The notes: generated from the letters alone by a model not told the origin. DNA of 64,000 nucleotides from Anaerolineales bacterium (GCA_020634895.1 JACKAV010000009.1:65465-129464); one strand, 5' to 3'. Positions 10,417 to 37,807 are shown, counted from the first letter of the stretch. Made by a program: numbers and translations.

Positions 10417-11838
10417 CTATTGCGAGAGAGAGCAACGAAAACCAAGATAATTTTCTTTGTCGTTTGGGTTAACCCCAAATCGAAAATACGAACGGGCGGC
10501 ATAGATACCAGAACTCCACGAGCCTCCCCGTTTCACTTTGTTTTGTCCATTTTCAGGGCCTGAGGGATTTTCAGAAGGTGAGTTCAAATAGTAAAGATCA
10601 TCATACCAGTCTCTTACCCATTCAGATACATTTCCTCCCAAATCGTACACTCCATACAGGCTCTTATCACCTAGATATTTGCCAACCGCTGTAGTATCTC
10701 CAATACAAGAATTATCATAATTCGCCTTATTGCAGTTAATATTTTCTCCCCAAGGATAGGTTCGATCATCCTGTCCACGCGCAGCTTTTTCCCATTGTGC
10801 CTCAGTAGGCAGGGCACGTCCCACCCATGAACAATAAGTCATTGCATCGTACCAAGAAACATATACAACCGGATAATTCGCAAACCCGGGGTCATCGAAA
10901 TAAGAAGAACGGGATTGTGAACGATTTTTTTCTGGTGGCTCGCACTGTTTCGCCTCCACACATTTGCCATACATTGCATTAGTGACCTCAGTCTGGTCAA
11001 TCCAATAAGCATCTAAAAAAACTTTATGAGCGACCTGGCTCCAATCTAAACTTCCCATCATAAATTCCCCTGCAGGGACATAAAGCAGCAGCATGTCATC
11101 CTTCAATGACCTTGAGGATGAGCCAATTCCAAGTACCGTTGTCGGTGTCGGGCTGGGAGACGCGGTTTCGGTCAGTGTTGGAGTGAACGGCGCTAACGTC
11201 TCTGTAGGCGGTTTGGGCGTTTCTGTAAAACTCTGTATGGTAGGTGTGGGTGTCGTTTCGGGCAGTTTCCTGAAGAGGGAATTCAAGCCAAATCCGCCTA
11301 AGATGAAAAACAGCAAAACGATTCCCACAACCCCAAAACTGCGAAACCGTTTTACTTGATAGATATTCCCAGACTTGATAAGTCTTTTTACCTCTTCGGT
11401 TTTTACTTTTTCTTCTGGAACCTGCGGCTTCTCTTCTTTTTCAGCTAATCCCCGATCTTTATTTTGCGAGACAACACTTTCAAGGTGACGGAAAAATCTT
11501 TCATCAGGCAGACCACCGCCAATAACATCAGAGTAATTTTTATCCTGCAGCAGCATCCATAGATCACCCTGCAGTAAAAGCGGAAATATCCTTTTGTCCT
11601 TCTGCATGGCATAAAGGACTTCACGTCTCACCCACTTCGAAAATTCCGAACTTTTAGTCATCACAACGATAAAAGCATCGCAGGCGTCTATTCGATTCGT
11701 GATGTGTTCAACCCACTCATCACCAGTCAACATTTCCAGGTCATACCAAACGTTAAATCCCCTTGTTTCAAGGGCATCAACCAGTCTCTTTACATAATCC
11801 TTATCTGTTCGGCTGTAACTAATGAAAATATGACCCAT
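10417..11838 (-). CDS. TIR domain, TM helix, Pro/Thr linker and FGE-sulfatase (SUMF1/C-type lectin fold) domain
   Basis: HIFISYSRTD...SKWVRREV TIR; TM FGVVGIVLLFFILGGFGL; LPTEAQWEKAARG, DLGGNVSEW, RGGSW...LGFR. Confidence 0.88.
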   Translation of the reverse strand: MGHIFISYSRTDKDYVKRLVDALETRGFNVWYDLEMLTGDEWVEHITNRIDACDAFIVVMTKSSEFSKWVRREVLYAMQKDKRIFPLLLQGDLWMLLQDKNYSDVIGGGLPDERFFRHLESVVSQNKDRGLAEKEEKPQVPEEKVKTEEVKRLIKSGNIYQVKRFRSFGVVGIVLLFFILGGFGLNSLFRKLPETTPTPTIQSFTETPKPPTETLAPFTPTLTETASPSPTPTTVLGIGSSSRSLKDDMLLLYVPAGEFMMGSLDWSQVAHKVFLDAYWIDQTEVTNAMYGKCVEAKQCEPPEKNRSQSRSSYFDDPGFANYPVVYVSWYDAMTYCSWVGRALPTEAQWEKAARGQDDRTYPWGENINCNKANYDNSCIGDTTAVGKYLGDKSLYGVYDLGGNVSEWVRDWYDDLYYLNSPSENPSGPENGQNKVKRGGSWSSGIYAARSYFRFGVNPNDKENYLGFRCSLSQ

Positions 11839-11971
11839 AAGTTTTTTAACCAATTACGATGCCTTGCAAGGTGCGGCAAGAAAAACACGGAGAAGCCCTG
11901 GCATGGTTCAGTTAAACCTAGTTTAAAAATTATAAACCCTCCCACCGAGAAAACTCAGCGAGAGGGCTCCA

Positions 11972-11991
11972 AACCTTCAACCTTCAACCCT
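11972..11991. repeat. 7-nt tandem repeat, three units
   Basis: aaccttc aaccttc aaccct directly after the moeB stop. Confidence 0.5.
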
Positions 11992-13145
11992 TAATACAAC
12001 GGCAAACTCGTATCCACTTCCTCTGCCCAGGCGTTGATTCCGCCTTTGAGGTTCTTCATCTTCTTGAAACCGGCGGACGAGAGAATTTCGATGGCGCGCG
12101 CCGAGCGTGATCCGCGTTTGCAGAAGACGACCATCTCTGTAGCAGAATCAAGCTCAGACATACGCTGGGCAACTTCACCGAGCGGGATGTTCTTTGCGCC
12201 ATCAATGGCAGCGATCTCCAACTCGTGAGGCTCACGCACATCGAGCAGGAGCAGGTCCGGGTCACGTTCGAGGCGGGCTTTTAATTCCTGCGCTGTGATG
12301 TCCCAATCCGCGCCCGCAGACGTATCATCCGCATGATGACCGGGCACACCACAAAACTCCTCGTAGTCGATCAACTCGGTGATATCGGCATTCGGTCCGC
12401 ACACACGGCAGTTGGGATTCTTCTTGAGCTTGACGAAATCAAAACTCATATCGAGCGCGTTGTATAGCAGGAGTTTTCCAATCAGCGGCTCGCCGATTCC
12501 AAGCAGGACTTTGAGCGCCTCGGTGGCTTGAAGTGTGCCGATCGTTCCGGGCAGGATGCCCAGCACGCCTCCCTCCGCGCACGAAGGGACAAGCCCGGGC
12601 GGCGGCGGTTCGGGGAAAAGACAGCGATAGCACGGACCTTCCTCGGCGTGAAAGACGCTCACTTGCCCATCGAAGCGGAAGATGGAGCCGTAGATATTCG
12701 GTTTGCCGAGCATCACGCAGACATCGTTGGTGAGATAACGGGTCGGAAAGTTATCGGTGCCGTCGATAATGACATCGTAATCCTTCGCGATGCGCAAGGC
12801 GTTCTCTGATGTATACGGCTCGTTATAAATATCCACCTGAATGTCCGGATTCAAATCCTGCAAGCGTTCGCGGGCACTTTCAACTTTCAACTTTCCAACT
12901 GTGCTCGTTCCGTGAATGACCTGACGCTGAAGGTTGGACGAATCTACAACGTCGTAATCCACCAAGCCAATGCGACCGATGCCAGCCGCGGCGAGGTAAA
13001 GCGCAACGGGAGAGCCAAGTCCGCCTGTGCCGATGACGAGAACAGAAGAGTTCTTGAGTTTGATCTGTCCCTGCAAGCCGACTTCGGGCATGAGCAGGTG
13101 ACGCGAGTAACGCAATATTTGTTCGTGATTAAGTTCTTCGATCAT
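11991..13145 (-). CDS. moeB: MoeB/MoeZ-type E1-like adenylyltransferase with C-terminal rhodanese domain
   Basis: RYSRH, GTGGLGS, SNLQRQ, CYRC and CRVC zinc motifs, PSCAEGG, rhodanese FCKRGSRS. Confidence 0.93.
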   Translation of the reverse strand: MIEELNHEQILRYSRHLLMPEVGLQGQIKLKNSSVLVIGTGGLGSPVALYLAAAGIGRIGLVDYDVVDSSNLQRQVIHGTSTVGKLKVESARERLQDLNPDIQVDIYNEPYTSENALRIAKDYDVIIDGTDNFPTRYLTNDVCVMLGKPNIYGSIFRFDGQVSVFHAEEGPCYRCLFPEPPPPGLVPSCAEGGVLGILPGTIGTLQATEALKVLLGIGEPLIGKLLLYNALDMSFDFVKLKKNPNCRVCGPNADITELIDYEEFCGVPGHHADDTSAGADWDITAQELKARLERDPDLLLLDVREPHELEIAAIDGAKNIPLGEVAQRMSELDSATEMVVFCKRGSRSARAIEILSSAGFKKMKNLKGGINAWAEEVDTSLPLY

Positions 13146-13453
13146 TTTGCCCTCACCCTAACCCTCTCCCAAAGGGAGAGGGAACCACCCGCAATGGACG
13201 GAATGAGCATCAACTTATCGCCGTCCTTGATGGGCGTTTCCACGCCTTGCAGGTCTTTGATATTATGCTCGCCGACGAACAAATTCACGAACGGACGCAG
13301 TTCATCCTTCTCGTTGAACAGATGCGGCTTGATGGCTGGGAACTGAGTCGTCAAATCCGCCAATGCCTCGGAAATATTCGCGCCGTTCACGTCCACTTCA
13401 CTTTTGCCGCTTGTATAGGTACGCAGCGGGGTTGGGATTCTCAAAGTTGTCAT
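13142..13453 (-). CDS. MoaD/ThiS/CysO-family ubiquitin-like sulfur carrier with a 13-aa extension after the Gly-Gly
   Basis: LRIPTPLR..., LRPFVNLFV, LIPSIAGG then SLSLWERVRVRAK-stop; ATGA overlap with moeB. Confidence 0.88.
   Translation of the reverse strand: MTTLRIPTPLRTYTSGKSEVDVNGANISEALADLTTQFPAIKPHLFNEKDELRPFVNLFVGEHNIKDLQGVETPIKDGDKLMLIPSIAGGSLSLWERVRVRAK
13150..13182. repeat. CCCTCACCCTAACCCTCTCCC-AAA-GGGAGAGGG palindromic element inside the Ubl 3' end
   Basis: ccctctccc (13162-13170) / gggagaggg (13174-13182), preceded by ccctca/ccctaa units. Confidence 0.75.
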
Positions 13454-13490
13454 AAATTCTGTTTTCTCTCTCGTTTAGTTTTTTTCTTCT

Positions 13491-13536
13491 GTAGGTCACG
13501 CTTTTAGCGTGACGCCACGTTACAAACACGACCTAC
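13491..13536. repeat. Inverted doublet of 23-nt GTAG REP-like elements (REPIN-like)
   Basis: gtag-gtcacgc-tttta-gcgtgac (13491-13513) abutting gccacgt-tacaa-acacgac-ctac (13514-13536). Confidence 0.7.
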
Positions 13537-13541
13537 ATATT

Positions 13542-14066
13542 TCATACAAACAATTGTACATCGGCATCTGCGGCGTATTCAAGGAAGGTCGCCGCGCCGC
13601 CAATCTCCGACTCTGGGATGAAGTCTTCGCGTTTGAAGCCAAAGACATCCATCGTCATCTGGCAGCCGATCATGCGGACGTCAAGTTCCACGCACATATC
13701 GCGTAATTCCTCAACCGTGGCAACGCCTTTATTCTTGAAGGTCTGTTTCATCAAACCGGTTGCCAGCGTCTCAAAACCAGGGACATTCGCCATCAAAATA
13801 TTCGGCATGGGCCAGTTAATGTTCTGGAATCCCTCGGGACCAAAGGGCATTTTCATCGGCATGGCAGGGTTGCCAAGCGCCGAGACTTGAGCGGAAAGCT
13901 TCGGTTTGAGCAGGGTCAGCCCAAAGAAGGTGAAAAAGATACCCACTTCCCAGCCCATTGCAGCGCCCGCACTGGCAAGGATGAACGGCGGATACGCCCA
14001 ATCAAGCGTCCCTTTGCTGGCGATCAACGCCAGTCTCTTCGGGGCATTCGGGTCAGATTTTGACAT
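13542..14066 (-). CDS. DsrE/DsrF/DrsH-like (DsrE2) sulfur-relay protein
   Basis: LALIASKGTLDWAYPPFILA, FFTFFGL, IGCQMTMDVFG, GGAATFL. Confidence 0.85.
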   Translation of the reverse strand: MSKSDPNAPKRLALIASKGTLDWAYPPFILASAGAAMGWEVGIFFTFFGLTLLKPKLSAQVSALGNPAMPMKMPFGPEGFQNINWPMPNILMANVPGFETLATGLMKQTFKNKGVATVEELRDMCVELDVRMIGCQMTMDVFGFKREDFIPESEIGGAATFLEYAADADVQLFV

Positions 14067-14098
14067 ATAAACCTCTTATTAAAATCAAAAGACAAAAT

Positions 14099-14335
14099 CT
14101 ACTTTTTGCGCAGGAAGAAAATGAACTTGCCTTCTTCCGTCAGGGAGCGCAGCAATTCGTTGCCGGTTTGCCTGCTCCACGCTTCGATGTCTGGAGGCGA
14201 ACCCGGGTCGGTTGCGATCATTTTCAGCACCTGCCCCGATTCCAATTCCTTGATCGCCTTGGTCGTTTTGACGATCGGCATTGGGCAAAGCAAACCTGTG
14301 CAATCCAAAACCTGGTCTTCGGTGATTACGTCCAT
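14099..14335 (-). CDS. tusA: Sulfurtransferase TusA/SirA family, 78 aa
   Basis: LDCTGLLCPMPIV (CPxP) and ATDPGS motifs; SD aggag before ATG 14335. Confidence 0.9.
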   Translation of the reverse strand: MDVITEDQVLDCTGLLCPMPIVKTTKAIKELESGQVLKMIATDPGSPPDIEAWSRQTGNELLRSLTEEGKFIFFLRKK

Positions 14336-14369
14336 ATTAAAGTTTCTCCTTTTGGAATTCTTGAGATCG

Positions 14370-14392
14370 ATCCTGAAGTGGAACTTCAGGAT
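14370..14392. repeat. Intergenic palindrome (GAAGT/ACTTC family)
   Basis: atcctgaagt-gga-acttcaggat. Confidence 0.55.
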
Positions 14393-14397
14393 TCCGT

Positions 14398-14811
14398 CTA
14401 TTGAATTTGAATTTCTTCTTCTTCGTATTGGGTGCGGTCTTCCACCAAACGCCACGAACGGTGGTTGACCGTTTTCCCTTTGTCCACACGCGAAATGATG
14501 TACGAGAAAAACGGCTGCGCCCATTCGCGGTCATATTCAGAAGGCACATTTGGGCAATCAGGGTGAGAATGAAAAACACCGATCAAGTCCATGCCCAACT
14601 CCATCGCTTTCATTTCCGCTTTCAGGTAATCTTCCGGCGTGATCAAAAAACGATTATGACGCGCTTCATCCTCGCGGGCATTCGGCAGCGAGATGATCTC
14701 ACGCACTTCCCCGTCCGCGCCGAGCAAAAAGCCTGCGCCCTCATCGGGATAAGCCGCTTCGATATGTTGTTGAATTCCTTCCAAAATCTTGTTTGTTACT
14801 TTCAAACTCAT
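14398..14811 (-). CDS. mec: JAB/MPN (M67) metallopeptidase, Mec/CysO-cysteine peptidase-like
   Basis: YPDEGAG glutamate and FHSHPD...PSEYD JAMM motif. Confidence 0.88.
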   Translation of the reverse strand: MSLKVTNKILEGIQQHIEAAYPDEGAGFLLGADGEVREIISLPNAREDEARHNRFLITPEDYLKAEMKAMELGMDLIGVFHSHPDCPNVPSEYDREWAQPFFSYIISRVDKGKTVNHRSWRLVEDRTQYEEEEIQIQ

Positions 14812-14814
14812 TTT

Positions 14815-15765
14815 TTATGCTCGCTCCCAAAGAGATTTGTCACTCAAATATTTATAGCCCGCATCCGGGAAGACGGTCACAACCACGCCTTCGTCAAGTT
14901 CACTTGCGACTTGAAGCGCAGCCACTGCCGCCGCCGCGGATGAGATTCCCACAAACAGACCTTCCTCCCGCGCAAGCCGGATCAACATCTCATGCGCCGC
15001 CTCGGTCTTGACCTCAAGCGGATTCCCCGCCAGAGACTCATCATAAATCCCGGGCTTGATGGAAGTCGGCATATGTTTCAATCCCTCCAATCCGTGGAAG
15101 GGAGCGTCCGGCTGAAACGCCAGCGTTTTGACATGCGGCAGATGCTCATGCAGATAGCGGCTTGTACCCGTAAATGTTCCGGATGTGCCCAATCCCGCCA
15201 CGAAGTGTGTGATCTGCCCATTGGTCTGGGAAATGATCTCAGGCGCAGTGCTCAGATAATGTGCCTGCCAGTTCGCGTCGTTGTTGTATTGATTGGCATA
15301 CCAGAATTTGTCCGGAGATTCCGCCGCCATCTCACGCGCCTTGAGGATTGCGCCATCTGAGCCTTCGGTCGGGTCGGTCAACACCAACTCCGCGCCAAGC
15401 GCCTTGAGGATGGAGATCCGCTCGGGGCTGGCGTTGGCAGGGAGCGCCAATGTGACGGGAATTCCCAACGCCGCGCCAAACGTCGCATATGAAATGCCCA
15501 TATTGCCGGACGTTGAATCCAATAGACGTTTGTGGTTATTCAAGTCACCATTGATGATGGCGGTCTGGATGATGTTCAACGCGGGTCGGTCTTTGACCGA
15601 GCCGCCGGGGTTAAACCATTCGGCTTTGGCAAAAACCTTCACTCGCGGTGACAGGCCCAAGGTCACGCGGCGAAGCGGAAGCAGGGGCGTATCCCCCACA
15701 TGAAAAGCAAGGCTGTCCAAAGGGATGGTATTTGATTCGGTTAATCGAAAGTCCAGTAAGGTCAT
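14815..15765 (-). CDS. cysM: PLP-dependent cysteine synthase, CysM-like
   Basis: VGDTPL, NPGGSVKDR (PLP lysine), TSGNMG, GLGTSGT, FPDAGYKYLS; SD aagga before ATG 15765. Confidence 0.9.
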   Translation of the reverse strand: MTLLDFRLTESNTIPLDSLAFHVGDTPLLPLRRVTLGLSPRVKVFAKAEWFNPGGSVKDRPALNIIQTAIINGDLNNHKRLLDSTSGNMGISYATFGAALGIPVTLALPANASPERISILKALGAELVLTDPTEGSDGAILKAREMAAESPDKFWYANQYNNDANWQAHYLSTAPEIISQTNGQITHFVAGLGTSGTFTGTSRYLHEHLPHVKTLAFQPDAPFHGLEGLKHMPTSIKPGIYDESLAGNPLEVKTEAAHEMLIRLAREEGLFVGISSAAAAVAALQVASELDEGVVVTVFPDAGYKYLSDKSLWERA

Positions 15766-15831
15766 ATATTCCTTGTTCAGTTTTGCAAAGGGCAAAACAT
15801 TATCAATTAAATAGAAACAGCCAACAGACAA

Positions 15832-15856
15832 ACAAAAAGACGGCGAACAAACGCCA
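15832..15856 (-). terminator. Candidate attenuator terminator in the cysM leader
   Basis: UGGCG-UUUGUU-CGCCG followed by UCUUUUUGUUU; short stem. Confidence 0.4.
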
Positions 15857-15941
15857 CACATCATGCATACTAAGGGATGCACGCGGGGGTCGCTCTACCG
15901 TCTGAGTCCGTTGGCTGCGGAAGTATTCGCTCAGGCGGTGG

Positions 15942-15986
15942 CTACGAGCCCCGCCCAAGACACAAGCAATAGGAAAATATCTTCAT
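15942..15986 (-). CDS. Candidate leader peptide MKIFSYCLCLGRGS (two Cys codons)
   Basis: ATG about 16 nt after the predicted transcription start; the stop sits inside a GC-rich hairpin; SD is weak. Confidence 0.4.
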   Translation of the reverse strand: MKIFSYCLCLGRGS

Positions 15987-16008
15987 GATTTAATCTCTAG
16001 ATGCGCCT

Positions 16009-16036
16009 ATTCTATGAATCTTACCGATTTTGTCAA
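16009..16036 (-). promoter_or_regulatory. sigma70-type promoter for the cysM operon
   Basis: TTGACA (16036-16031), 16 nt, TAGAAT (16014-16009). Confidence 0.65.
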
Positions 16037-16065
16037 GATAAATATCCCCACCAATATTTGTTGTT

Positions 16066-16347
16066 TTATCCGCCCGAAGCAGAAGCCATTAAGATGACCA
16101 CATCCCCATCATTCAATGTTGTCTCAAATCCGTTCAGTTCCTGCATTTGAACGCCGTTCACAAAGATGCTGAAATACCGCCGCAGTTCACCTTTCGCGTC
16201 AAAGAGGTGCGGCTTTAGCGCGGGATAACGCAAAAGGATGTTATCAAGCAGTTCGGTGATCGTTGCGCCGTTCACTGAGAACTCGCTTTGGTTATCAACA
16301 TAATATTTCATCAGGGCGGGAAACTTAACGGTTGGCATGGAAAGCAT
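16066..16347 (-). CDS. Second MoaD/ThiS-family ubiquitin-like protein ending in a free Gly-Gly (start may be 16338)
   Basis: VKFPALM..., LRRYFSIFVNG, ILMASASGG-stop. Confidence 0.85.
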   Translation of the reverse strand: MLSMPTVKFPALMKYYVDNQSEFSVNGATITELLDNILLRYPALKPHLFDAKGELRRYFSIFVNGVQMQELNGFETTLNDGDVVILMASASGG

Positions 16348-16407: not shown

Positions 16408-18489
16408 CTATTCTTCCTTCTTGGCTTCCATTTCCTTCTTATGCGCTTCGATGATCGGAGCCGCAATATGTGAAGGAACCGTATCGTAGTGATCGAACTC
16501 CATCGTGAAGTAACCGCGTCCACCTGTGATGGAACGAATCTGGGTGGTGTACTTCAGCATTTCAGCCATCGGCACGTGCGCGATGATGATGGTGTTTCCG
16601 CGTTCCGACTCGGTTCCCTGTACGCGCCCGCGGCGGGTGTTGAGGTCGCTCATCACGTCGCCCATATTCGCATCCGGGCAGGTCACGCGGACGTTCATGA
16701 TCGGCTCGAACAACACGGGTCCCGCCTCAGCCACGGCGAGCTTGAAGGCTTCGCGACCTGCGATTTCGAACGCGACTGGTTTCGAGTCTACTTCGTGTTC
16801 CTTACCGTCGTAGACAGTCACACGCACATTGCTCATCGGATAACCGGCGAACGCGCCTCTTTCCATCGTGGCGCGGATGCTCTTTTCGATCGGAGGCAGG
16901 TACGAACGGGAGAGATTCATACCGACCAACGCATCCACGAATTCGAAGTCGCCTTCCATGTACGGCTCGATGCGAAGATGAACTTCACCGAACTGACCAG
17001 CGCCGCCGGATTGTTTCTTGTGGCGATACTGCGCGGCAGCTTTTCTTGTAATGCCTTCGCGATACGGGACCTTCGGTTCGTGAAGTTCAATGCCAACCTG
17101 GAATTTGGTCTGCGCGCGATGGACTGCCACGTCGATATGCTGGTCGCCCATTCCCTGCAGGACGGTTTCATGCGTCACGGAGTCGTTCTGCCAGGAGAGA
17201 GTCATATCTTCTTCTGCCAGGCGGGTGAGGACGCTGGAAATCTTTGCAGCATCTGCCTGAGTCTTGGGAGTGACAGCTACACGGTACAACGCCGCTGGGT
17301 ATGCAGGCGTCGGAATGGTCAGGGGATGTCCCTTATCGCAGAAGGTGTCGCCAGTGGTGGAGACGTTCAGTTTCGCGACCACGGCAATGTCTCCAGCATG
17401 AACCAATTTTGTAGGAATGGATTCCTTACCACGCTGGAAATGCATACCGGACATACGCTCATCCGTTTCTTTGGGCTGGTTCCAAACATGAGAATCCGCT
17501 TCAATGGAGCCGGAGAGCACGCGGAAGTAGGTCATTTTTCCCACGAACGGATCAGCTGTTGTTTTCCATACATAAGCAGCGAGGGGAGCATCATCGGAAG
17601 GTTTCAATTCTTCTTCACCGTCTTTGCCCTGTGCTGTACGCTTTACAGCATCGACCGGAGAAGGAAGCAGGTCGATGACATCGTTGAGCAAGGCAATTGA
17701 TCCAATTTCATGCGCGCCTGCCGCACAAAAGACCGGGACAAATTCTCCAGCGTAGACCACATCTTCGAGACCACGCACCATCTCTTCGTCTGAGAGAGAG
17801 CCGTTCTCAAGATATTTTTCCATCAATTCATCTTCGCCTTCGGCGGCGGCTTCCACCATATCAAAATGGGCTTTTTCAGCAGCTTCCTTTAATTCAGCAG
17901 GGATTTCCGCCGTAGTCGAGCCGTCACCCATATAGGACTTCATCCCAATGATATCCACCACGCCTTTGAAATCGTGCTTATCGCCAATGGGCAGGTGGAC
18001 CTTGATGGCGCGTTTATCATGCAGTTTGACGAACTCGTCGATCTGGGCAAACGCCTTTTCAAAGTCTGCAGTATCGCGGTCCAATTTATTAATGACAATG
18101 AAACGCGGCAGGTTGAACTGGTCGCAATAGCGCCATGCCAGTTCGGTCCCCACTTCGATGCCGGAAACGGCGTCCACTAAAATAATTGCGCCATCTGCCA
18201 CACTGAGAGCGGATACCATCTCGCCCACGAAATCTGTGTAGCCTGGCGCATCTAGAAAATTGATCTTGTGATCTTTATGCTCAACCGGGATCAAACTCGT
18301 ATAAATGGAGATCTTTCTTCTTTGTTCTTCATCATCATAGTCTGATGTGGTCGTCCCGTCCTCAACTTTTCCCAGGCGGGTTGTTGCCCCCGTTACATGC
18401 AGAAAGGCTTCTGCAAGCATGGTTTTGCCTGCCCCCCCATGCGAAACCAACGCAACGTTGCGTATAAACTCGGTGGTATACTCTTTCAT
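16408..18489 (-). CDS. fusA: Elongation factor G paralogue (EF-G2 type)
   Basis: SHGGAGKT, DAPGYTDF, NKLD, KQSGGAGQF; divergent switch I (EEQRRKISI); not in the str operon. Confidence 0.88.
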   Translation of the reverse strand: MKEYTTEFIRNVALVSHGGAGKTMLAEAFLHVTGATTRLGKVEDGTTTSDYDDEEQRRKISIYTSLIPVEHKDHKINFLDAPGYTDFVGEMVSALSVADGAIILVDAVSGIEVGTELAWRYCDQFNLPRFIVINKLDRDTADFEKAFAQIDEFVKLHDKRAIKVHLPIGDKHDFKGVVDIIGMKSYMGDGSTTAEIPAELKEAAEKAHFDMVEAAAEGEDELMEKYLENGSLSDEEMVRGLEDVVYAGEFVPVFCAAGAHEIGSIALLNDVIDLLPSPVDAVKRTAQGKDGEEELKPSDDAPLAAYVWKTTADPFVGKMTYFRVLSGSIEADSHVWNQPKETDERMSGMHFQRGKESIPTKLVHAGDIAVVAKLNVSTTGDTFCDKGHPLTIPTPAYPAALYRVAVTPKTQADAAKISSVLTRLAEEDMTLSWQNDSVTHETVLQGMGDQHIDVAVHRAQTKFQVGIELHEPKVPYREGITRKAAAQYRHKKQSGGAGQFGEVHLRIEPYMEGDFEFVDALVGMNLSRSYLPPIEKSIRATMERGAFAGYPMSNVRVTVYDGKEHEVDSKPVAFEIAGREAFKLAVAEAGPVLFEPIMNVRVTCPDANMGDVMSDLNTRRGRVQGTESERGNTIIIAHVPMAEMLKYTTQIRSITGGRGYFTMEFDHYDTVPSHIAAPIIEAHKKEMEAKKEE

Positions 18490-18619
18490 CGATTAGTTAC
18501 CTTCCTGGATTATAAGATTGTCAAGCAGGTTGCACGATTGTAAAAGAACTCAAATGAATTGTCAAAGTGTGATGCGTCACACAAAAACTGTGACATTTAC
18601 GACTATCCCTGTTTAATAA

Positions 18620-19108
18620 ATGAGCTCATTGTTCGGCACATATTCCTTTGTAACCATCGCAGTTGGCTTCGCATTCATTGCCGGCGTCATCCTGCTCTCC
18701 AACAGACCCAAATGGAACGACTATCTCGCGTTTGGCGTGATCGTCGCCGGGCTGGTCATCACGTGGACCGTGCTGCATCCGCGCCAGACGCCCCTCATGG
18801 ACGATGCAAAAGAAGTGCAGGCAATGATCGGCAACGGCAAGCCCGTGCTGCTTGAATTCCAATCCCCCTACTGAATACGCTGTGTATCGATAAAACCCGT
18901 CGTGGACGGGCTCGAACAGGAAGTCAACGGACAGGTACATTTCATCCGTTTGAACATACAGGAACAGGTCGGCATGGAGCTTGCCCCCGTGTACGACTTC
19001 GAATTCACTCCCACCTTTATATACTTCGACTCAGAAGGCAACGAAGTCTGGCGCATGGTTGGCGATTTCGATCCGCAGCGCGTGCGCGATACACTTGCAA
19101 ATGAATAA
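18620..19108 (+). CDS. Membrane-anchored thioredoxin-fold protein with an in-frame UGA (18872-18874) in a UxxC motif: probable selenoprotein
   Basis: The two track ORFs are in the same frame and read ...KPVLLEFQSPY-UGA-IRC-VSIKPVVDGL...FTPTFIYFDSEG. Confidence 0.8.
18875..18910 (+). promoter_or_regulatory. Candidate bacterial SECIS hairpin
   Basis: cccgtc-gtg-gacggg (18896-18910); the loop starts with G, 27 nt after the UGA. Confidence 0.55.
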
Positions 19109-19679
19109 TTTTCTCCGCCGTTTCAAATTCAATACCGCCTATACACTTGGCAATACCCCCTGGGATAGCGGCATCTCGCCGCCCGAGCTTTATGATTTTC
19201 TCGCGGCACATCCCACCGGACGCGCACTGGATATCGGCTGCGGCACCGGAACCAATCTCATCACCCTCGTCAACGCCGGTTGGCAGGCAGATGGTTTCGA
19301 CTTTGCCCCCCGCGCCGTCAATCTCGCAAAAAGAAAACTCCGCAAAATCAGTATCAACGCCCGCGTCTTTACCGACGACGCTACACAAATGAAGAACATC
19401 CAGCCGCCGTATGATCTCGCGCTCGACCTCGGATGTTTCCACGGAATCGAATCAAAAGCGGATTATCTGACCCAACTGGCACGCGCACTCGCCCCAAGCG
19501 GATTCTGGCTCATGTACGGATTCCTCAAACCAGACACGGCTCAACCCGGACCCGGAATTGCCCCCTCCGACCTGGACCTGATCGAACGCCACAACCTGAC
19601 TCTGGTCTCCCGCCAGGACGGATTCGACAGAGGCGAAAAGACCTCCGCATGGTTCTTATGGCAAATGAGTAACAAGTAA
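19101..19679 (+). CDS. Class I SAM-dependent methyltransferase (TPMT-like)
   Basis: TPWDSG, ALDIGCGTG, DLALDLGCFH; overlaps the stop of the thioredoxin gene. Confidence 0.85.
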   Translation: MNNFLRRFKFNTAYTLGNTPWDSGISPPELYDFLAAHPTGRALDIGCGTGTNLITLVNAGWQADGFDFAPRAVNLAKRKLRKISINARVFTDDATQMKNIQPPYDLALDLGCFHGIESKADYLTQLARALAPSGFWLMYGFLKPDTAQPGPGIAPSDLDLIERHNLTLVSRQDGFDRGEKTSAWFLWQMSNK

Positions 19680-19727
19680 CCAGCCGAACTCGTCTGACAT
19701 TTATCCGTGTTTATCGGTAATTATTAT

Positions 19728-20648
19728 ATGAAAATCCTCTTTCTCTTTTTAGACGGTATCGGGCTCGGCGAAGACAACCCTGAGACAAATCCTTTTATCA
19801 ACGCGGATATGCCATACTTGGAGTCTCTGCTTGGCGGGAAAAAACTAACCAAATCCGCCGCGCCGTTCGAAAGTGACACAATTACACTCAAAGCCATCGA
19901 TCCCAACCTCGGCGTGAAGGGACTGCCTCAATCCGCCACAGGGCAGGCTGTTCTGCTCACCGGCACAAACATCCCTGCCGAACTCGGCTATCATTACGGA
20001 CCCAAACCCAACTCCGAAGTTGCCCAATACCTAAACGGACATACGATATTCTCAAGGACGGTCAATGCCGGGAAAAAAGCCGCCCTGCTAAACGCCTACC
20101 CACCGGGATATTTTAAAGGAATCAACTCGGGTAAACGCCTGTACTCTTCCATTCCACTCGCGTTGACCAACGCCGGCATTTCCCTCTTCACCGAACAGGA
20201 CTACCACGCGGGTAACGCGCTGGCAGCCGATTTCACCGGCGAAGGCTGGAAGACTTTTCTCAACATAGACAACGCCCCAGTCTTCGACCCGGAAACAGCT
20301 GGAACAAAACTTGGCGAGTTAGCCAAACGATACGATTTCTCCTTCTTCGAATATTGGGCAAGCGACTACGCCGGTCACAAACAGGATATGCCCTGGGCAA
20401 CCAACCAACTCGAAGTTTTCGACGGCGTGCTAAAAGGTCTGCTCGCAAACTGGCGGGACGAAGACGGTCTCATCCTGCTCACCTCCGACCACGGCAACAT
20501 GGAAGACCTCGGCACACGCAAACACACAGCCGCGCATGTTCCGCTTTTATTATTTGGGGATAAAACAAAACGAGACGCCTTCACAGACGTCTCGGACTTG
20601 ACCGGTGTTGCGCCAGCAATCAGTCAATTACTCGCACTCGACAATTAA
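19728..20648 (+). CDS. Alkaline-phosphatase-superfamily metalloenzyme (phosphoglycerate mutase/phosphopentomutase-like)
   Basis: LFLFLDGIG, PQSATGQ, SDYAGHKQD, LTSDHGNME, KHT. Confidence 0.82.
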   Translation: MKILFLFLDGIGLGEDNPETNPFINADMPYLESLLGGKKLTKSAAPFESDTITLKAIDPNLGVKGLPQSATGQAVLLTGTNIPAELGYHYGPKPNSEVAQYLNGHTIFSRTVNAGKKAALLNAYPPGYFKGINSGKRLYSSIPLALTNAGISLFTEQDYHAGNALAADFTGEGWKTFLNIDNAPVFDPETAGTKLGELAKRYDFSFFEYWASDYAGHKQDMPWATNQLEVFDGVLKGLLANWRDEDGLILLTSDHGNMEDLGTRKHTAAHVPLLLFGDKTKRDAFTDVSDLTGVAPAISQLLALDN

Positions 20649-21791
20649 TTATCTTCGAAGCTTCTCAATAGCTTCCTTCGCCAGAGCGGCAATTTCTCTA
20701 TTCGTGCGGTCGGAAGCAACCTCCTGCAAAGGTTGAATAGCGCGCGCATCGCCAAACTGGGCAAGCGACAGAATGGCTTGCTGCTTGACGTTCGGGTCGG
20801 GATCATGGAGCATTTCGATAAGGAACGGAACGACCCGCGCATCTCGGATCTGCGCAAGCCCGAGGATGGCGTGCTCGCGGACAGTCGCTTCGGGGTGGAT
20901 CAACGCCTCGGCAAGCAAGTCGATGGCGGGTGCGCCAAAACGAGCCAACGCCAACGCCGCAGCCTGACTCACTTCGTGGTGCAGATCATATACCGCCATT
21001 CCCAATTCTTCCATAGCGCGGACATCACCCAAATTCCCCAAAACCATCGCCGCAAATTTACGGACTGTCCCCTCACGGTCGCCAAGGGCTTCGATCAACG
21101 GCTCGACCACTGGCGTGCCCATATTCTGGATGGCTGTCAACAAATCGCGCACAGACTGTTCCCGCTCAAACCACCAGAACGAATCGCGCAGCGCTTCCAT
21201 CAAAAAGGGAATCGCCGCCGGGTCGTGTGAATCACCCAACGCTTTCAGCGCCGCCTGCCGGACTTCTATCTTGGTATCGTCCAATGTGACGTTGGCAAGC
21301 TCATCAAAAGTTGAAGGGTCGCGGAACTTTCCAACAGCGGAACAAGCGGCAATGCGGACTTCATCCTCATTGTCCTTCAGTAATGGAAGCAACTCAGGCA
21401 GAACACGTGCATCGCCGATATTTGCCAACGCAGTCGCTGCCCTCGCGCGGACGGTAAAAAATTCCCCATGCAAGGCTTCAACCAAAACGGGAATTGCATT
21501 CCTGTCTTTGCTGATCGCAAAGACCTCAGCCGCACGTCCGCGAATGATGGGGTGTGCAGACTTCAACGCTTTGGTCAGCTCGGGAGAGGCGGCAGGGATT
21601 CGGGCGAGGATTTGCTGATAGACCGGAAGCAGGCTCAAGTCTTGGGTCTGAAGCGCTTCGATGAGGGACGGAACAGCATCCGCGCCAAGTCGAATCAGAT
21701 CCTGTGCGGCACGCTCGCGCCGCGATGTATCCGCCAGTATTGCGATCAGTTTTTTTGCTTCACCCTGTTTGGGATTCGAGAGCCAGTTCAT
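20649..21791 (-). CDS. HEAT-repeat (PBS lyase-like) protein
   Basis: Many VRxxAAxALGxIGD-type repeats. Confidence 0.88.
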   Translation of the reverse strand: MNWLSNPKQGEAKKLIAILADTSRRERAAQDLIRLGADAVPSLIEALQTQDLSLLPVYQQILARIPAASPELTKALKSAHPIIRGRAAEVFAISKDRNAIPVLVEALHGEFFTVRARAATALANIGDARVLPELLPLLKDNEDEVRIAACSAVGKFRDPSTFDELANVTLDDTKIEVRQAALKALGDSHDPAAIPFLMEALRDSFWWFEREQSVRDLLTAIQNMGTPVVEPLIEALGDREGTVRKFAAMVLGNLGDVRAMEELGMAVYDLHHEVSQAAALALARFGAPAIDLLAEALIHPEATVREHAILGLAQIRDARVVPFLIEMLHDPDPNVKQQAILSLAQFGDARAIQPLQEVASDRTNREIAALAKEAIEKLRR

Positions 21792-26186: not shown

Positions 26187-29081
26187 TTAAGGCACATAAT
26201 AATCGATCAACAAATGCGGACGGTTCGCCTGGTCAACAGCATCGCCGCTGTAAAACGTCAGGAAGTCCGCACCAAGATCGTCGTTATCATCCAATTGGAA
26301 GGCAAGGCGGAGTTGAGTAATGCCTGTTCTGTTGATATACGTAAAAGCATTCGGCGTCAGCACAGCCCAATACCATCCACCCACAGGGTTATTCTGAATG
26401 ATCGCCGCATTTCCAAAACTGGCAGGAGACTGAAAGTCCATCGACTGGAGGGCATTCACCTTGAATGGACCAAAGAAACCGTAGGGTCCGTAACTTAAAT
26501 CCACGAGAATATTGCCATGTGTGGTGAATGGATCACTGCCCGAAATGCCCTGTAACTTTATCGTCAGGATCGCCTGCGTGATGACCGCATTATCCGGCAG
26601 ATAATCGGTGGGGAAATGCAAAATGGAACGGTATTGACGATCCTGAGCATCATCGCCAACCCGCAACGTATCCGCGGTGGAATTTTTTGTGCCGCCAATA
26701 TCGCTGTCTTCCGCTGTTTCCAGAATCCAGCCGTCATTCCTGCCGTTGGAGCGCAAACGTTCGGTCTTCACTTCATTCACTTTTTTACTGATCGAGTAGA
26801 AAGGTCCGGCAAAATTCCCATTTCCAAAACCAACCCCGCCGAGCGGATTCCCAGCCGCATCCACAAGGCTGTCATCATCCACAACGCTGAGTTGAATGGT
26901 GCCATTTCCCGTTCCGGTGCCAACTGTGACAATTGCAGTGCTTGCATCGATGGAGAGTTCGGGAATCGTGAGCCCCGTCGGTCCATTTGCAGTTAACGCA
27001 AATTGGCTCACGTCGATATACTTCACGGGTTCAGAAAAGATCACGCTGAAATGAACCGTTTCCGCCGAAGTTGGATCCGGGTCGAGGCGCAGGATCATTG
27101 TCACGATTGGAGGAGTCCGATCAAGCGTATAAGACTCTCCAGTTGTGAAATTTCCATTGCCGCCTCCAAAACCACCGAGCGGAATGCCGCTTTCATCCAC
27201 AATGCTGTCATCATCCACCAGATCGAGCCGCAGCGTTCCATCGCCCGAACCCGCGTTGACGTTGACCGTATAAGCATTCCCCGCGCCGACGACATCAACC
27301 AGAGACGCGCCTCCAACAGACCCGGAAGTGGAGAGTATAAAATCGCTGGTATCAACGCCGGTCACTGATTCGGAAAAGGTCACCGCAAAACGCGCGCCCG
27401 CATTCGCAGTCGGATTCGCATCGAGCCGCAGGATACTCGTCACAACAGCAATGTTCTTATTCACAACATAGACTTCACCATTCATGAAGCTGCCATTCCC
27501 CGCACCCGCACCGCCAAGCGGATTTTGCGAAACGTCCCTGATGCCGTCATCATCCACAACGTCGAGGCGCAGTGTACCATCGCCCGTTCCGGTATCCACG
27601 TTGACGAAGTACTCGCTTCCCGCCCCGCTGACAGCGGTTATCACCGCCCCAGAAATTCCCCCGCCGATAGTTAACACAAAATCGCCGACTTCCACGCCGG
27701 TGACATCCTCAGAAAATCGGACGAGGAAATCAACATGCTGATCCGCGGGAGAACAATTGGATGAACAGGAATGTTGAATGGAGACAATCGTTGGCGGGGT
27801 ATCTGCCTGATATGACATTTCCCTTACATATATATCCCTTTCACCATTGGTGTCCTCCGGTACATGCGCAAACGAAGTGGCGAAAAGCAGAAACCGACCA
27901 TCCCCCGAAATAGACGGCAGAATGGGGCTATCCATGCCGCTGCTGTCGTGACCGGGAACCGCCAGATACATTTGGTTTGTAGTCCGATCGGCAATGTAAA
28001 GATCGCGTCTCGGCATTCCATCACCTTTATCATCAAAACTAAAAGCGATATAACGCCCGTCCGCAGAGATGACCGAGGAATCAGACTCGCCCACCATTGC
28101 ATAACCATCTTTGTAGGAAACTAACAAAGTTGTACCAGCCTGCATATCCCGCACATAGAGTTGGGTATAACCATAAGTATCGACCGTTGTGAAATCATCT
28201 GAAGAAGTGGAGAACGTCACATATCTTCCATCGCCCGATATGGACGGTTCCGTTGAAGAGAAACCGCCCTGTACGCCGCTCGAGTTGACAGATGCGCGCA
28301 CGATCTGCCCGGTCTGTATCGAATATACAAAAACATCCGCGACACCGTTGGTATCATCGGGAACGAAATTTGTGGACCTCGAATTGAAGACCACAAAGCG
28401 TCCGTCCAGGGAGATGCTGCCATCAAAGCCGCCAGCGTTCCCAGAGACGGTAACACCGGTTGTCGTTCCCAATTGCATGTCGCGCACAAAAATATCGCCT
28501 GCACCGTTGGTATCGTTTGGCACGAGATTATCCGCTTCGGAGTCAAAGACCACAAATCGCCCATCCCCAGAAATCGACGCATTTATCGCCTCATTGTTCG
28601 GTTCGCCGCCCGTCGAAGTTAATGAAGCGCGCGATACTATTCCAGTAACTGTATCTTTGACATAAATATCGCTAAAACCATTCATATCACCCGGCAGGAG
28701 ATTAGTCGCGCCGGATTCAAAGGCGACGAAATGCCCGTCCGCCGAAATGGATGGATTGCCTCCGCCTCCGTCCGCTTCCAGACCAGCCGCATCCACCGAA
28801 ACGCGGACAATTGTGCCAAGCTGCAAGTCGCGCATAAAAACGTCACTCACGCCATTAATATCATTCGGGACGAGATTTGTCCCTTCAGATTCAAAGACGG
28901 CAAAACGCCCGTTCGCGGAAATTTGTCCGCGATACGAAATGGCATTCGAACCTGCCGAGACCCAGGTGTAGCCGCCAGCCGCGGCATGTGCAGAATCGAG
29001 ACCGCCCGGCTGAAAAAATGAAGCCAACAAGAGGAGTCCCAAAGCGCCTCTCCAAACTATTTTGTGGATATTGGGTTTCAT
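26187..29081 (-). CDS. Secreted surface protein: PD40/TolB-like beta-propeller, three Ig-like repeats, DNRLRE/CBM96-like C-terminal domain
   Basis: Signal peptide; repeated SISGDGRF...D.N...DIFVRD; repeated FSE.V.GVD..DF and GTLRLD..DDDS; LRVGDD...YRSILHF; ends YYVP. Confidence 0.85.
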   Translation of the reverse strand: MKPNIHKIVWRGALGLLLLASFFQPGGLDSAHAAAGGYTWVSAGSNAISYRGQISANGRFAVFESEGTNLVPNDINGVSDVFMRDLQLGTIVRVSVDAAGLEADGGGGNPSISADGHFVAFESGATNLLPGDMNGFSDIYVKDTVTGIVSRASLTSTGGEPNNEAINASISGDGRFVVFDSEADNLVPNDTNGAGDIFVRDMQLGTTTGVTVSGNAGGFDGSISLDGRFVVFNSRSTNFVPDDTNGVADVFVYSIQTGQIVRASVNSSGVQGGFSSTEPSISGDGRYVTFSTSSDDFTTVDTYGYTQLYVRDMQAGTTLLVSYKDGYAMVGESDSSVISADGRYIAFSFDDKGDGMPRRDLYIADRTTNQMYLAVPGHDSSGMDSPILPSISGDGRFLLFATSFAHVPEDTNGERDIYVREMSYQADTPPTIVSIQHSCSSNCSPADQHVDFLVRFSEDVTGVEVGDFVLTIGGGISGAVITAVSGAGSEYFVNVDTGTGDGTLRLDVVDDDGIRDVSQNPLGGAGAGNGSFMNGEVYVVNKNIAVVTSILRLDANPTANAGARFAVTFSESVTGVDTSDFILSTSGSVGGASLVDVVGAGNAYTVNVNAGSGDGTLRLDLVDDDSIVDESGIPLGGFGGGNGNFTTGESYTLDRTPPIVTMILRLDPDPTSAETVHFSVIFSEPVKYIDVSQFALTANGPTGLTIPELSIDASTAIVTVGTGTGNGTIQLSVVDDDSLVDAAGNPLGGVGFGNGNFAGPFYSISKKVNEVKTERLRSNGRNDGWILETAEDSDIGGTKNSTADTLRVGDDAQDRQYRSILHFPTDYLPDNAVITQAILTIKLQGISGSDPFTTHGNILVDLSYGPYGFFGPFKVNALQSMDFQSPASFGNAAIIQNNPVGGWYWAVLTPNAFTYINRTGITQLRLAFQLDDNDDLGADFLTFYSGDAVDQANRPHLLIDYYVP

Positions 29082-29203
29082 ACTGCTCTCCTTCAAATGT
29101 GAAACAAATCCCCGCTTATTTTCACAACCTCATCATATATCCAAAAAATGAGACTCGATTATTTCAAAATCATTCTAGATTTTCCAACCAGGGTATGTAA
29201 CAA

Positions 29204-32460: not shown

Positions 32461-35400
32461 TCACGGCACATAATATTTTATCGTCAACTGCGGGCGGGCA
32501 TAAAGCACTCCATAATCGCCGCTGAAAAACGACAGGTAATCGTCGCGCCGGTTGTCGTCGTCATCGACAAGGAAGCCAAGCCTGAATTGCGTCACGCCCT
32601 GGAGGTTGATAAATGGGAAGGAGCGAGCATCCAAATTCGACCAATACCAACCGCCCACCGGGTTATCCAAAATAATCCCTGCAGAATACAAACTGGCAGG
32701 AGCCTGAAAATCGGAATTTTGCAAAGACCCGATCTGGAATGGTCCAAAACTGCCGAATGCGCCTTCGCGAATATCGATCCAAATATAACGATGCGACACA
32801 AAAGGATTTTTCCCAACGATCGTTTCAAGCTGCAGAGTCAATATCGCCTGCGTGATAACCGCGTTATCCGGCATGGATTCGGTCGGGAACTGCAAGATGG
32901 AACGATATTGATTATCCTGCGCGTTATCGCCCACACGAATCGTGGCAGACCTCGAATTGACCGTCCCGCCACGATTGCTCGTCTCTTTCGATTCAAGGAT
33001 CCACCCATCATCCGCGCCATCTGAATAAAAGACGGCAGAGTAAATAACGGGCGTATTTCTGTCAATGGTATACGTCTCACCGGAAGCAAAATTCGCATTC
33101 CCAATTCCCGCACCGCCCAAAGGCGCGCCCATTGCATCCACAATGCTGTCATCGTCGAATAGATCAAGGCGGAGCGACCCATTACCGCTGCCAGTGTTGA
33201 CGACGACGGTGTAGATCGAACCCGATCCGGTAATGGATAAAAGTCCCGCATCACTCAAGCCGGAAGCTGCCAGCACAAAATCAGCCGCGTCCACACCGAA
33301 AACGGATTCAGAGAATGTGACCGCGAATCGCACCGTGTCGGCGGAGGTGGGGTCTGGGTCAGCTCGCAGGATGGAGGTCACGTACGGAGCGCTTCTGTTG
33401 ATTGTATAGGTATCGCCCGCAAAATTTCCATTTGAAATGCCAACTCCACCCAACGGCGTAGACATCGCATCAATGATACTGTCGTTGTCCGTGAGGTCGA
33501 GGCGCAGGGTTCCATCCCCGCTGCCTGTGTTGACAGTGACCATGTAAGCGCTGCCTGAGCCGGAAATTTCTGTGATGGAAGCGTTCGCAAGATTGCCGCT
33601 GGTCGAAAGGATGAAGTCTCCCGCATCCACGCCGCTGACATCCTTCGAGAAGTCCAACGCATAGCGGACAAAATCCGCGTTGGTGGACAAAGCATCCGCG
33701 CCGGAGATCGAAGTGACCACCGGAGGAACCACTGGCGCGGGAGTATCCGTTACAACAGGTGGCGGCGTGGGCGCATCAGGAATTGGCGTTGAAACATCCA
33801 GCATCGGCGTAGCCGTAGGACCCGCCGTTCCATATGGAGATTCAAAAGCACCAATATCCGGTGCGCTGCCAAAATAATTATCGTTGATTCCCGGAATAAG
33901 CACGCCCCTATCAATGTTCGGGCTGGTTGCCGAGAGCGAGAAATCTCCCCACGCAGGGTTCGTCAAACCGGGAGGATTTTCGTGCCCGTTACATTCCAAA
34001 TTTGAAGCGCGGCACAATTGATTCATGGTGGAGTAATTTACGTTCTCCCAAATGAATCGATAGCCCGTGCTCGAAGTGCTCCAGTTGTCGTAATTCCAAT
34101 CATGCCCCGTCGAACCGGCGTGATGCGCCTCTACAGAATATCCATTCCCTTGAAAGATATTGTTCCGCATGATCGAGTTATACGTGTTGCTGATCATCTC
34201 AAGCGAATTCAAGTTCGCCTGATTCGTCCAACTGGTGTTGTGATAGATCAACACCCAGCCGTCTGAATTTCGATCCCATTTGATGTTGCGGGCTGTGAAA
34301 TTCGAGAACGTATTCCGCAGCACCCAGACCGGTCCACGCGTGATCGGCGCAAGGGAAATGCCCACCAAAGTTGAATCGATCGAGTTATTCCTGAAGCGGT
34401 GATTGACGCAGGTTCCCTCCGGCTCGAGCGCATCATCACCGATGTTACGAATGGTATTGTTATAAATATCCGCATCGAACGCCACGCCGGGGTTATCCAA
34501 CGCGCCTGATGAACTTGTGTATATCCCATTGAAATAATCGTGGATCTGGTTGCCGCGCACGATTGCGCCGATATGCCCCCTGAGAACGACGGCAATCGAT
34601 TCCATTGAAGTCCCTTTGACGGCAGCCCACGGCCACGGGTCATTGACCACGTCGTACATCTCGTTATATTCGATGCGCGTGTCGTTGCCGCGGTCTTCGC
34701 CGCCAGTCCATTCGACAAAGACCGGATTCTGCAAATTATGGATGCGGTTCTTACGCACCACGATATGAGAAGCATTCGTCAAACACGCGCCGCAGCCGTA
34801 CTCCGTTCCGTAGTAACGCATCTCAAAACCTTCGATCCAGATCCAGTCACGCCCGTTCACATCGAACGCTTTGTTCAAACGCGGAATCTGCCAGGAATAT
34901 TTTGACGGCTCACGCTGGCTGCGAACATAAAGCCGCGACGTGACCGGGTCGTAATACCAACCTTCACTGATCGAAGTGTTGTTGTGTCCGCGAGAATCCA
35001 AAAGCCCATTCAGGTCGTCGTACTTGTACATGCGCTTTCCATCGCGCGTGAGGTAATAAATGCCGGGACCGATCTTCGCAAACCAAACCAGCGACTTGGA
35101 CTTGTACGGCTCCCACACATCCGATGCGAGGGTTTCGGACCCATCAAGAACTGCGCCTCCACCCTCCGCCTTGACCTGAATCCAATTTCCAGGCATTCCC
35201 GAAGCCGGAAACGTGACCGACTCATGATAGACCCCGTCCGCGACCAAAACCTGCGAGCCGGGCACAGCGCGGTTGACGCCTTCCTGAATGGTGCGGAACG
35301 GCGCCGAAACAGACCCGTCCCCGCCTGCGGGAGCATCGTCATTGACGTAAATATAATTCGAAGGTGAAAAGAATAATTCGTCTGATTGAGTCGTAAAAAT

Positions 35401-35736: not shown

Positions 35737-35828
35737 AGATGTACGAAATAACAAGGCGTGAACGCGCCGTTATCCGCTTCCACTATAGCATGGACAAACA
35801 AAAATACAATTTTCAAAACATGACAAAA

Positions 35829-37708: not shown

Positions 37709-37807
37709 ATTCATTCTCCTTGGTGAGGGTTTCTAATCACTCTTTTTCGTAATACGGAATCCATCACTGTCCATGGTGACCGTAAAATCCGTAAACTCAA
37801 TAATATC

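Follow-up and report, generated by a model that had tools for sequence, protein, structure and literature searches.

Two adjacent open reading frames (ORFs) in the genome of a wastewater Anaerolineales bacterium raise the question of whether the TGA that separates them ends a gene or is read as part of one. They occupy positions 18620-19108, on the plus strand, of the 64-kb stretch of DNA that we analysed (JACKAV010000009.1:65465-129464 of assembly GCA_020634895.1, hereafter the window). The first-pass annotation of this stretch had proposed a single, hidden gene for a membrane-anchored thioredoxin that carries selenocysteine (Sec) in a UxxC active site. Our comparative analysis points in the same direction: we put at about 0.88 the probability that the two called ORFs are one gene, whose UGA at 18872-18874 would be decoded as Sec, with a hairpin shortly downstream acting as the selenocysteine insertion sequence (SECIS).

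The first ORF (18620-18874, 84 codons) closes with the TGA at 18872-18874. Past this codon, the same frame continues as IRCVSIKPVVDG... (I-R-C-V-S-I-K-P-V-V-D-G-L...) for 77 more codons up to the TAA at 19106-19108, and the whole comprises 162 codons plus the stop, next to homologues of 160-166 residues. Public gene calls cut the gene into proteins of 84 and 68 residues, the latter encoded at 18902-19108; an example of a C-terminal peptide of the 162-residue product, downstream of the UGA, is LNIQEQVGMELAPVYDFEFTPTFIYFDSEGNEVWR. With cysteine (Cys) placed at the stop, this product matches the Pfam family Thioredoxin (PF00085, E=6.6e-10, 39.4 bits versus a cutoff of 23.5). The in-frame UGA is codon 85, the proposed Sec codon, where the CxxC motif has its N-terminal, attacking residue, and Cys88 (TGT, 18881-18883; TGC in one strain variant) is the resolving Cys of the resulting active site Y-U-I-R-C. 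Every sequence detail that the first-pass annotation had described, including a single frame interrupted only by this TGA and the place of the TGA at the first Cys of the thioredoxin motif, turned out to be accurate.

If the codon is functional, relatives should bear its mark. A protein search returned 292 of them, and the 120 listed were all full-length (159-223 residues, nearly all 160-170); those that carry names are thioredoxin-family proteins from Anaerolineae/Chloroflexota, and the closest among those listed is only 80% identical. In all 24 aligned full-length homologues, the column of the TGA is an invariant Cys within the motif FQSPY-C-x-x-C. We furthermore scanned metagenome contigs with a pattern consisting of the back-translated P-V-L-x-E-F-Q-S-P-Y, then TRR (TGA, TAA, TAG or TGG), then x-x-C. 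Among the matches listed, the codon is TGA in 120 of 120 loci, and TAA, TAG and TGG occur in none; wherever the contig is long enough, the frame stays open for 75-81 codons past the TGA and contains the conserved motifs of the family. These TGA forms are highly divergent; their variants include U-IRC, U-IAC, U-MGC, U-LAC and U-LGC. With TGH in place of TRR, the pattern, applied to one genome per GTDB species, yielded at least 119 loci, and the titles listed are nearly all metagenome-assembled genomes (MAGs) of Anaerolineales, Anaerolineae or Chloroflexota. Among the 119 species-representative loci listed, the codon is TGA in 77 and a Cys codon in 42 (TGC in 32, TGT in 10); judged by this count, most of the family is in the TGA state, which is found in about two thirds of related species.

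Taken together, the metagenome and genome scans place a TGA at this codon in more than 190 divergent homologues. The first-pass annotation had suggested aligning homologues and had named TAA, TAG or a non-Cys residue at this codon as evidence to the contrary; what is found is either Cys or TGA, in a frame that is open and conserved downstream. In a neighbour-joining tree computed with the U/C column masked, Sec and Cys forms are interleaved, and parsimony gives at least 14 switches between them, a crude estimate.

The second line of evidence comes from the RNA. A SECIS-like hairpin spans 18894-18912 on the plus strand (codons K92-L98). Its core, CCCGTC-GTG-GACGGG at 18896-18910, pairs 18896-18901 with 18905-18910 and leaves the loop GUG (18902-18904), the G of which, at 18902, lies 27 nucleotides (nt) after the A of the TGA; beyond the core only A18894-U18912 pairs, since 18895/18911 is an A-C mismatch. 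An alignment of 104 distinct TGA-form sequences, which begins 6 nt ahead of the TGA and extends to 57 nt past it, contains no gaps. In this alignment an eight-pair helix (columns 29-36 with 40-47) has standard pairs in 87.4% of cells, compared with 22-42% for controls in which the 3' arm was slid by 1-3 columns. Column 34 (base 1 of a Val/Ile codon) and column 42 (base 3 of an Asp codon) combine as G-C in 69 sequences, A-U in 32 and G-U in 3, and column 33 (base 3 of a Pro codon) and column 43 (base 1 of a Gly/Arg codon) combine as C-G in 93 and U-A in 11; both positions are unpaired in none. RNAalifold with RIBOSUM scoring returns exactly the hairpin of 6 base pairs (bp). The stem, 6-8 bp long, is fixed at +27 nt, and apart from one or two TGA forms the loop always reads GUG, GUU or GUC. 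A Sec-form subgroup with the residues KPAVD(EL) (L136, L156, L205, L217, L240 and related metagenome loci) has a shifted stem, AAGC(C)CG/CG(A)GCUU, in which a 7-nt loop, CCGUUGA, replaces the 3-nt loop and again exposes G-U.

Comparison with the Cys forms indicates that the hairpin belongs to the TGA. The six-pair core contains on average 5.4 pairs in TGA forms versus 2.8 in Cys forms, and the local minimum free energy is -8.4 kcal/mol for Sec forms versus -4.0 kcal/mol for Cys forms (Mann-Whitney p=3e-11). At codon 94, the third base is C in 75 of 75 TGA forms, whereas the Cys forms have A in 4, G in 14, T in 8 and C in 16; similarly, the third base of the Pro codon is C or T in 74 of 75 TGA forms, and any of the four bases in Cys forms. 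Synonymous sites at the hairpin are frozen only in the TGA forms. Four Cys forms (L166, L171, L215 and L237) have a perfect 6-bp hairpin; these are probably recent Sec-to-Cys conversions in which the SECIS has not yet decayed. The hairpin with a G-starting loop noticed at the outset is thus present, covarying and specific to TGA forms, and its fixed distance, the G-U that opens its loop, its covariation and its specificity support the view that it behaves like a bacterial SECIS. The accepted signature of such an element is a conserved G in a small apical loop that closely follows the UGA (PMC1088965). As in the SECIS of E. coli fdhF and of Moorella, the stem-loop lies in the coding region soon after the UGA, G-U stands at the 5' side of the loop, and the distance to the UGA is fixed across orthologues. 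The program bSECISearch accepts loops 16-37 nt from the UGA, a range that includes the 27 nt of the window gene; in fdhF the loop G lies at ~19 nt.

Several results weigh against this assignment, both for the hairpin and for Sec itself. Retrieval of the homologous loci needed the flanking PVLxEFQSPY and xxC, hence the counts given above describe the well-conserved core of the family only. RNAalifold with default scoring gave no consensus pairs, and a single-sequence fold does predict the hairpin, yet with an energy no better than that of shuffled sequences (z = -1.1); the decision is therefore carried by the comparative data, i.e. the pair counts and the contrast between Sec and Cys forms. Unlike the fdhF and Moorella elements, the hairpin has a loop of only 3 nt in most members and no bulged U of the kind present in the SECIS of E. 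coli fdhF. There is also no Rfam SECIS match: searches at gathering thresholds on the whole window and at E<=10 on 18560-19200 gave only a chance antisense match. As to the machinery, ARAGORN found no tRNA in the 64-kb window and, with ~250 related loci added, six tRNAs, none of them tRNA-Sec. Pfam searches of the 42 long ORFs in the window revealed no SelA, SelB or SelD, and tblastn of the window and the ~250 loci with queries modelled on E. coli SelD and SelA gave no matches, a weak negative. The window and these loci represent a small part of any one genome. A scan of the window for same-frame ORF pairs split by TGA provided no convincing second selenoprotein candidate.

Which amino acid is inserted is the point at which an alternative survives best. 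Genome-wide reassignment of UGA could be ruled out, as UGA terminates 7 of the 42 long ORFs in the window, and many genes of the family, in metagenome as well as genome loci, use TGA as their own terminator. UGA is still a normal stop there, and recoding must therefore be position-specific and local. Such recoding together with a local hairpin would fit the insertion of another amino acid as well, and the free interchange of Sec and Cys would be compatible with Cys insertion, too. Thus, the UGA might be read through in a way other than canonical Sec insertion, either as Cys, by means of a SelB-like factor and a tRNA with UCA anticodon, a system reportedly found in a few bacteria by Mukai and colleagues, or as Trp or Cys through hairpin-stimulated near-cognate decoding. 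That no Sec machinery was found in the window and the ~250 related loci fits this possibility. Nevertheless, we consider it improbable: alternative decoding systems are rare, and all features observed here fit the standard signature of a bacterial selenoprotein, with Cys or UGA at a redox CxxC and a hairpin with G-U at a fixed distance. Moreover, UxxC thioredoxins have been verified as selenoproteins (PMC13188914), SelB and Sec-type formate dehydrogenases have been reported from single-cell genomes of Anaerolineales, and Anaerolinea thermophila is reported to have SelB as well (PMC4959059), and Sec use is reported in Chloroflexi generally (PMC1794560, PMC13326102). From this comparative signature we infer that the residue inserted is Sec rather than another amino acid, and its insertion would presumably depend on SelB.

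The hypothesis that the gene is broken fares worse. Gene callers do annotate two pieces, and a GTG stands in frame at 18902, which would be in agreement with a pseudogene, or with an 84-residue membrane stub followed by a 68-residue fragment that starts at this GTG and lacks the active site. However, the same TGA recurs in the divergent homologues described above with the downstream frame intact and conserved, codon 95 is GTT or GTC in many relatives, neither of them a start codon, and a hairpin specific to TGA forms would have no role in a broken gene. Variation among close relatives argues likewise. We compared ten strain variants picked by an exact match to the N-terminal 84 residues, such that variation is possible in the C-terminal part only. 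After the TGA, they differ in ~15 synonymous versus 5 nonsynonymous codons, and three of the latter cluster at codons 103-106, in a loop that is also variable between species. In a sequence free of constraint, mostly nonsynonymous change is expected; the downstream frame has therefore been kept under purifying selection during strain divergence. Furthermore, 9 codons separate the TGA from GTG 18902, and among the strain variants a single change affects them, a synonymous TGT>TGC at Cys88. The earlier proposal of an intact gene rather than a pseudogene hence agrees with these data, and we regard a broken gene as very improbable.

One base would suffice to turn the TGA into TGC or TGT, both Cys codons, but an error of sequencing or assembly is ruled out by the recurrence of the TGA in independent assemblies, in contigs from four studies and in RNA. 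Gene calls give exactly this 84-residue N-terminal product on at least 23 contigs; the assemblies are independent and come from ENA, Logan and NCBI, the last with the MAG GCA_020433745.1, which is of the same species as the window. In DNA sequence, ten of the contigs match the window at 96.6-99.8% identity. The complete genome CP070639.1 also carries the TGA form, and OW818655.1 the Cys form. At least 20 sequencing runs on activated sludge and wastewater, from 8 studies, contain the sequence, and contigs from 4 runs of 4 studies, at a depth of up to 166, have no variant at 18872-18874. A wastewater metatranscriptome contig covers 18832-19008 with the TGA unaltered, and a second one covers 18507-18823; the gene is therefore probably transcribed, DNA carry-over being another possible source of these contigs. 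A sequencing error had been named at the outset as a way in which the proposal could fail, and these contigs speak clearly against it.

With the gene read through its UGA, we turned to the protein. A structural model was built with AlphaFold2 on P0001, a Cys homologue 80% identical to the window protein, using 53 sequences (mean predicted local distance difference test score 86.5). The model begins with two helices, at residues 10-26 and 32-52, and continues after this anchor with a helix, strand 76-81, helix 86-105, a strand, a helix, two strands and a helix (β-α-β-α-β-β-α). According to the alignment and the model, U85-x-x-C88 comes after strand 76-81, where helix 86-105 begins. Among PDB entries, the best matches are the classical thioredoxins spinach thioredoxin m, E. 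coli TrxA and Treponema pallidum thioredoxin, with target TM-scores of 0.75-0.8 and a root-mean-square deviation of ~2 Å. T130-P131-T132 is invariant and located at the position of the thioredoxin cis-Pro loop, where P131 presumably adopts the cis conformation. The above-threshold PF00085 match and the classical fold of the model bear out the initial assignment as a UxxC thioredoxin. The protein presumably has a redox role, in which U85-x-x-C88 would form a selenenylsulfide/selenol-thiol couple and Sec would act as the nucleophile that attacks.

The N-terminal helices are predicted to span the membrane (~residues 10-26 and 32-52; 18647-18775, plus strand), as had been noticed initially; a hydropathy scan detects two hydrophobic segments for the window protein as well as for 202 of 203 relatives, in agreement with the helices of the P0001 model. 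They are joined by the short, positively charged loop NRPKWND. On average, this inter-helix loop contains 2.6 Lys and Arg residues, the N-tail 0.2 and the 15 residues after the second helix 1.7, from which the positive-inside rule weakly favours, at little better than even odds, a location of the thioredoxin domain outside the cytoplasm. The inter-helix loop, N-[KR]-P-K-W-N-D, and the linker after the second helix, L-H-P-R-Q-T-P-L, are nearly as conserved as the active site, a hint that they take part in a specific interaction on the surface of the membrane.

Thioredoxins with UxxC (PF00085) are an experimentally verified family of bacterial selenoproteins, and many thioredoxin-like ones have been predicted (PMC13188914, PMC9312934, PMC1794560); the Sec thioredoxin of Treponema denticola (WP_010956703.1) is listed as experimentally verified (PMC13188914). 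The window protein resembles the latter type in its thioredoxin fold, in Sec replacing the attacking Cys of CxxC, in the common occurrence of Cys orthologues, and in a SECIS, here a putative one, within the coding sequence right after the UGA. It differs in its two-helix N-terminal anchor and in Y-U-x-x-C rather than W-C/U-G-P-C. Moreover, its family is so far found only in Anaerolineales/Chloroflexota, with Sec forms in the majority among the loci listed (77/119), and shares a fixed operon with genes for a methyltransferase and a metalloenzyme. An assignment as TrxA orthologue (TIGR01068 equivalog) was rejected, with 44.9 bits versus a cutoff of 96.8 and the motif Y-U-I-R-C instead of WCGPC.

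Another group to be considered comprises ResA, CcmG/DsbE and TlpA, which share with the window protein a membrane-held domain of thioredoxin fold and a CxxC-type centre, and the charges described above weakly favour an outside-facing domain here as well. However, these proteins are anchored by one helix only, and their fold, of the Redoxin/AhpC-TSA type, contains an extra insertion. We thus rejected this type for the window protein, which has two helices, no Redoxin or AhpC-TSA Pfam match, and classical cytoplasmic-type thioredoxins as nearest structures. Pfam searches of the 42 long ORFs of the window gave no CcdA or DsbD partner. The window protein is also reminiscent of the families SaoT (NF040730), HUIPC-motif (NF047660) and VPGUxxT (NF041383) of NCBIfam (PMC13188914), with a thioredoxin-like fold, a UxxC-type motif and discovery by comparative genomics. 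None of the NCBIfam selenoprotein models, including these three, matched at E<=0.001, and the only hits were generic thioredoxin models, all below cutoff; the annotation models of NCBI therefore do not cover this clade. BSepDB, which is homology-based (method in PMC13326102), may already list members under 'thioredoxin'.

The thioredoxin gene does not stand alone. The ATG of a SAM (S-adenosylmethionine)-dependent, TPMT/HOL-like methyltransferase gene (19101-19679, plus strand, 192 residues) overlaps the thioredoxin stop by 8 nt (ATGAATAA). Its product matches Methyltransf_12/25/23/31/11 of Pfam and, at the borderline, TPMT (26.1 bits versus a cutoff of 26), with weak similarity to enzymes of the TehB, ArsM and CpaM types. 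The third gene of the cluster (19707-20648, plus strand) encodes a metalloenzyme-superfamily protein of 313 residues with an alkaline-phosphatase-like core of the iPGM/phosphopentomutase type (PF01676, E=1e-21), for which NCBIfam gave matches below threshold only. Among Sec-form genomes, the methyltransferase gene lies directly downstream in 54 of 60 and is followed by the metalloenzyme gene in 39 of 53; the corresponding counts are 27 of 35 and 14 of 29 for Cys-form genomes, and 69 of 72 and 28 of 35 for metagenome loci. As further context, an elongation factor G (EF-G) paralogue (16408-18489, minus strand; NCBIfam NF009381, 872 bits) is a conserved divergent neighbour, located upstream in 51 of 55 genomes with the Sec form, in 27 of 27 with the Cys form and in 34 of 35 loci from metagenomes. 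A promoter and terminator scan of 18300-20900 revealed nothing exceeding the shuffled expectation. In Candidatus Villigracilis saccharophilus (L156, JADJNA010000062.1) the Sec-thioredoxin and the methyltransferase form a clean in-frame fusion, which is weak evidence given a long-read assembly; a similar fusion in L160 was discounted, as its SAM-binding motif is garbled by frameshifts typical of long-read errors.

The first-pass annotation had held that the thioredoxin gene is coupled to the methyltransferase and metalloenzyme genes. As far as co-expression is concerned, this is supported by the 8-nt overlap and by the gene order in Sec and Cys forms alike, whereas a functional link can only be presumed. 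We propose the following scheme. The thioredoxin gene opens a conserved cluster of three genes, followed by the methyltransferase gene, to which it is coupled in translation, and the metalloenzyme gene. During its translation, the hairpin, 22-38 nt downstream of the UGA and with G-U at the start of its loop, would recruit the complex SelB-GTP-Sec-tRNA(Sec) to the ribosome. The resulting Sec-thioredoxin would probably serve as the membrane-tethered reductant of a three-gene module, with the products of the neighbouring genes as presumed partners. As a more far-reaching and rather doubtful possibility, this could be an Anaerolineales-wide module in which a membrane-tethered selenol reduces S, Se, Te or As species, or a membrane disulfide, and the product is then methylated; alternatively or additionally, the protein could be an outward-facing, extracytoplasmic selenoprotein of a monoderm-type bacterium. 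The conserved operon, the borderline TPMT match, the L156 fusion and the charge bias allow, but do not demonstrate, either version, which, if true, would provide a new functional context for Sec.

Regardless of its function, a conserved gene appears as two 'hypothetical' fragments in the protein sets of NCBI and ENA and in those derived from Logan. With this split annotation, and with no NCBIfam model to recognize it, the gene has been missed across an order of abundant wastewater and sediment bacteria. Given the Sec form in 77 of the 119 sampled species listed, the use of Sec in Anaerolineales would thus be broader than formate dehydrogenase. The gene is a further case of the known UxxC thioredoxin selenoproteins, not a new class, and leaves the understanding of Sec insertion unchanged. 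The family also serves as an example of dual coding: more than 190 presumed Sec forms stand beside 42 Cys forms, the two states have switched at least 14 times, and a putative SECIS seems to shape synonymous sites as well as the choice of amino acid at codon 97. The fixed operon with a TPMT-like methyltransferase, in turn, offers a concrete functional hypothesis.

Other parts of the window contain features of their own. Just upstream of the EF-G gene lies a sulfur-carrier cluster (11991-16347, minus strand) with genes for ThiF plus rhodanese (MoeZ-like, 11991-13145), DsrE_2 (13542-14066), a PALP cysteine-synthase-like protein (14815-15882) and MoaD/ThiS (16066-16347); TusA and JAB genes also belong to it, as seen in locus L001. 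It looks like a thiocarboxylate pathway of the CysO/CysM type. Other bacteria have selenoprotein families of the MoeB-, DsrE- and rhodanese-like kinds, but within 11991-16347 we saw no in-frame TGA. Two genes encode TIR-domain proteins, one with an FGE-sulfatase domain (10417-11853, minus strand) and one with a WD40 propeller (29267-32206, minus strand), the latter flanked by two very large ORFs at 26187-29096 (PD40 repeats only) and 32461-35754 (1097 residues, no Pfam match); all of these may be defence or signalling genes. Tandem spermidine/spermine synthase paralogues are located at 35858-36688 and 36770-37714 (minus strand). Finally, an ORF at 53029-53562 (minus strand) combines ribosomal protein L31 with a region that matches the C-terminal domain of RNA polymerase alpha (PF03118, E=8e-7) and is either an unusual fusion or the result of a mis-called start.

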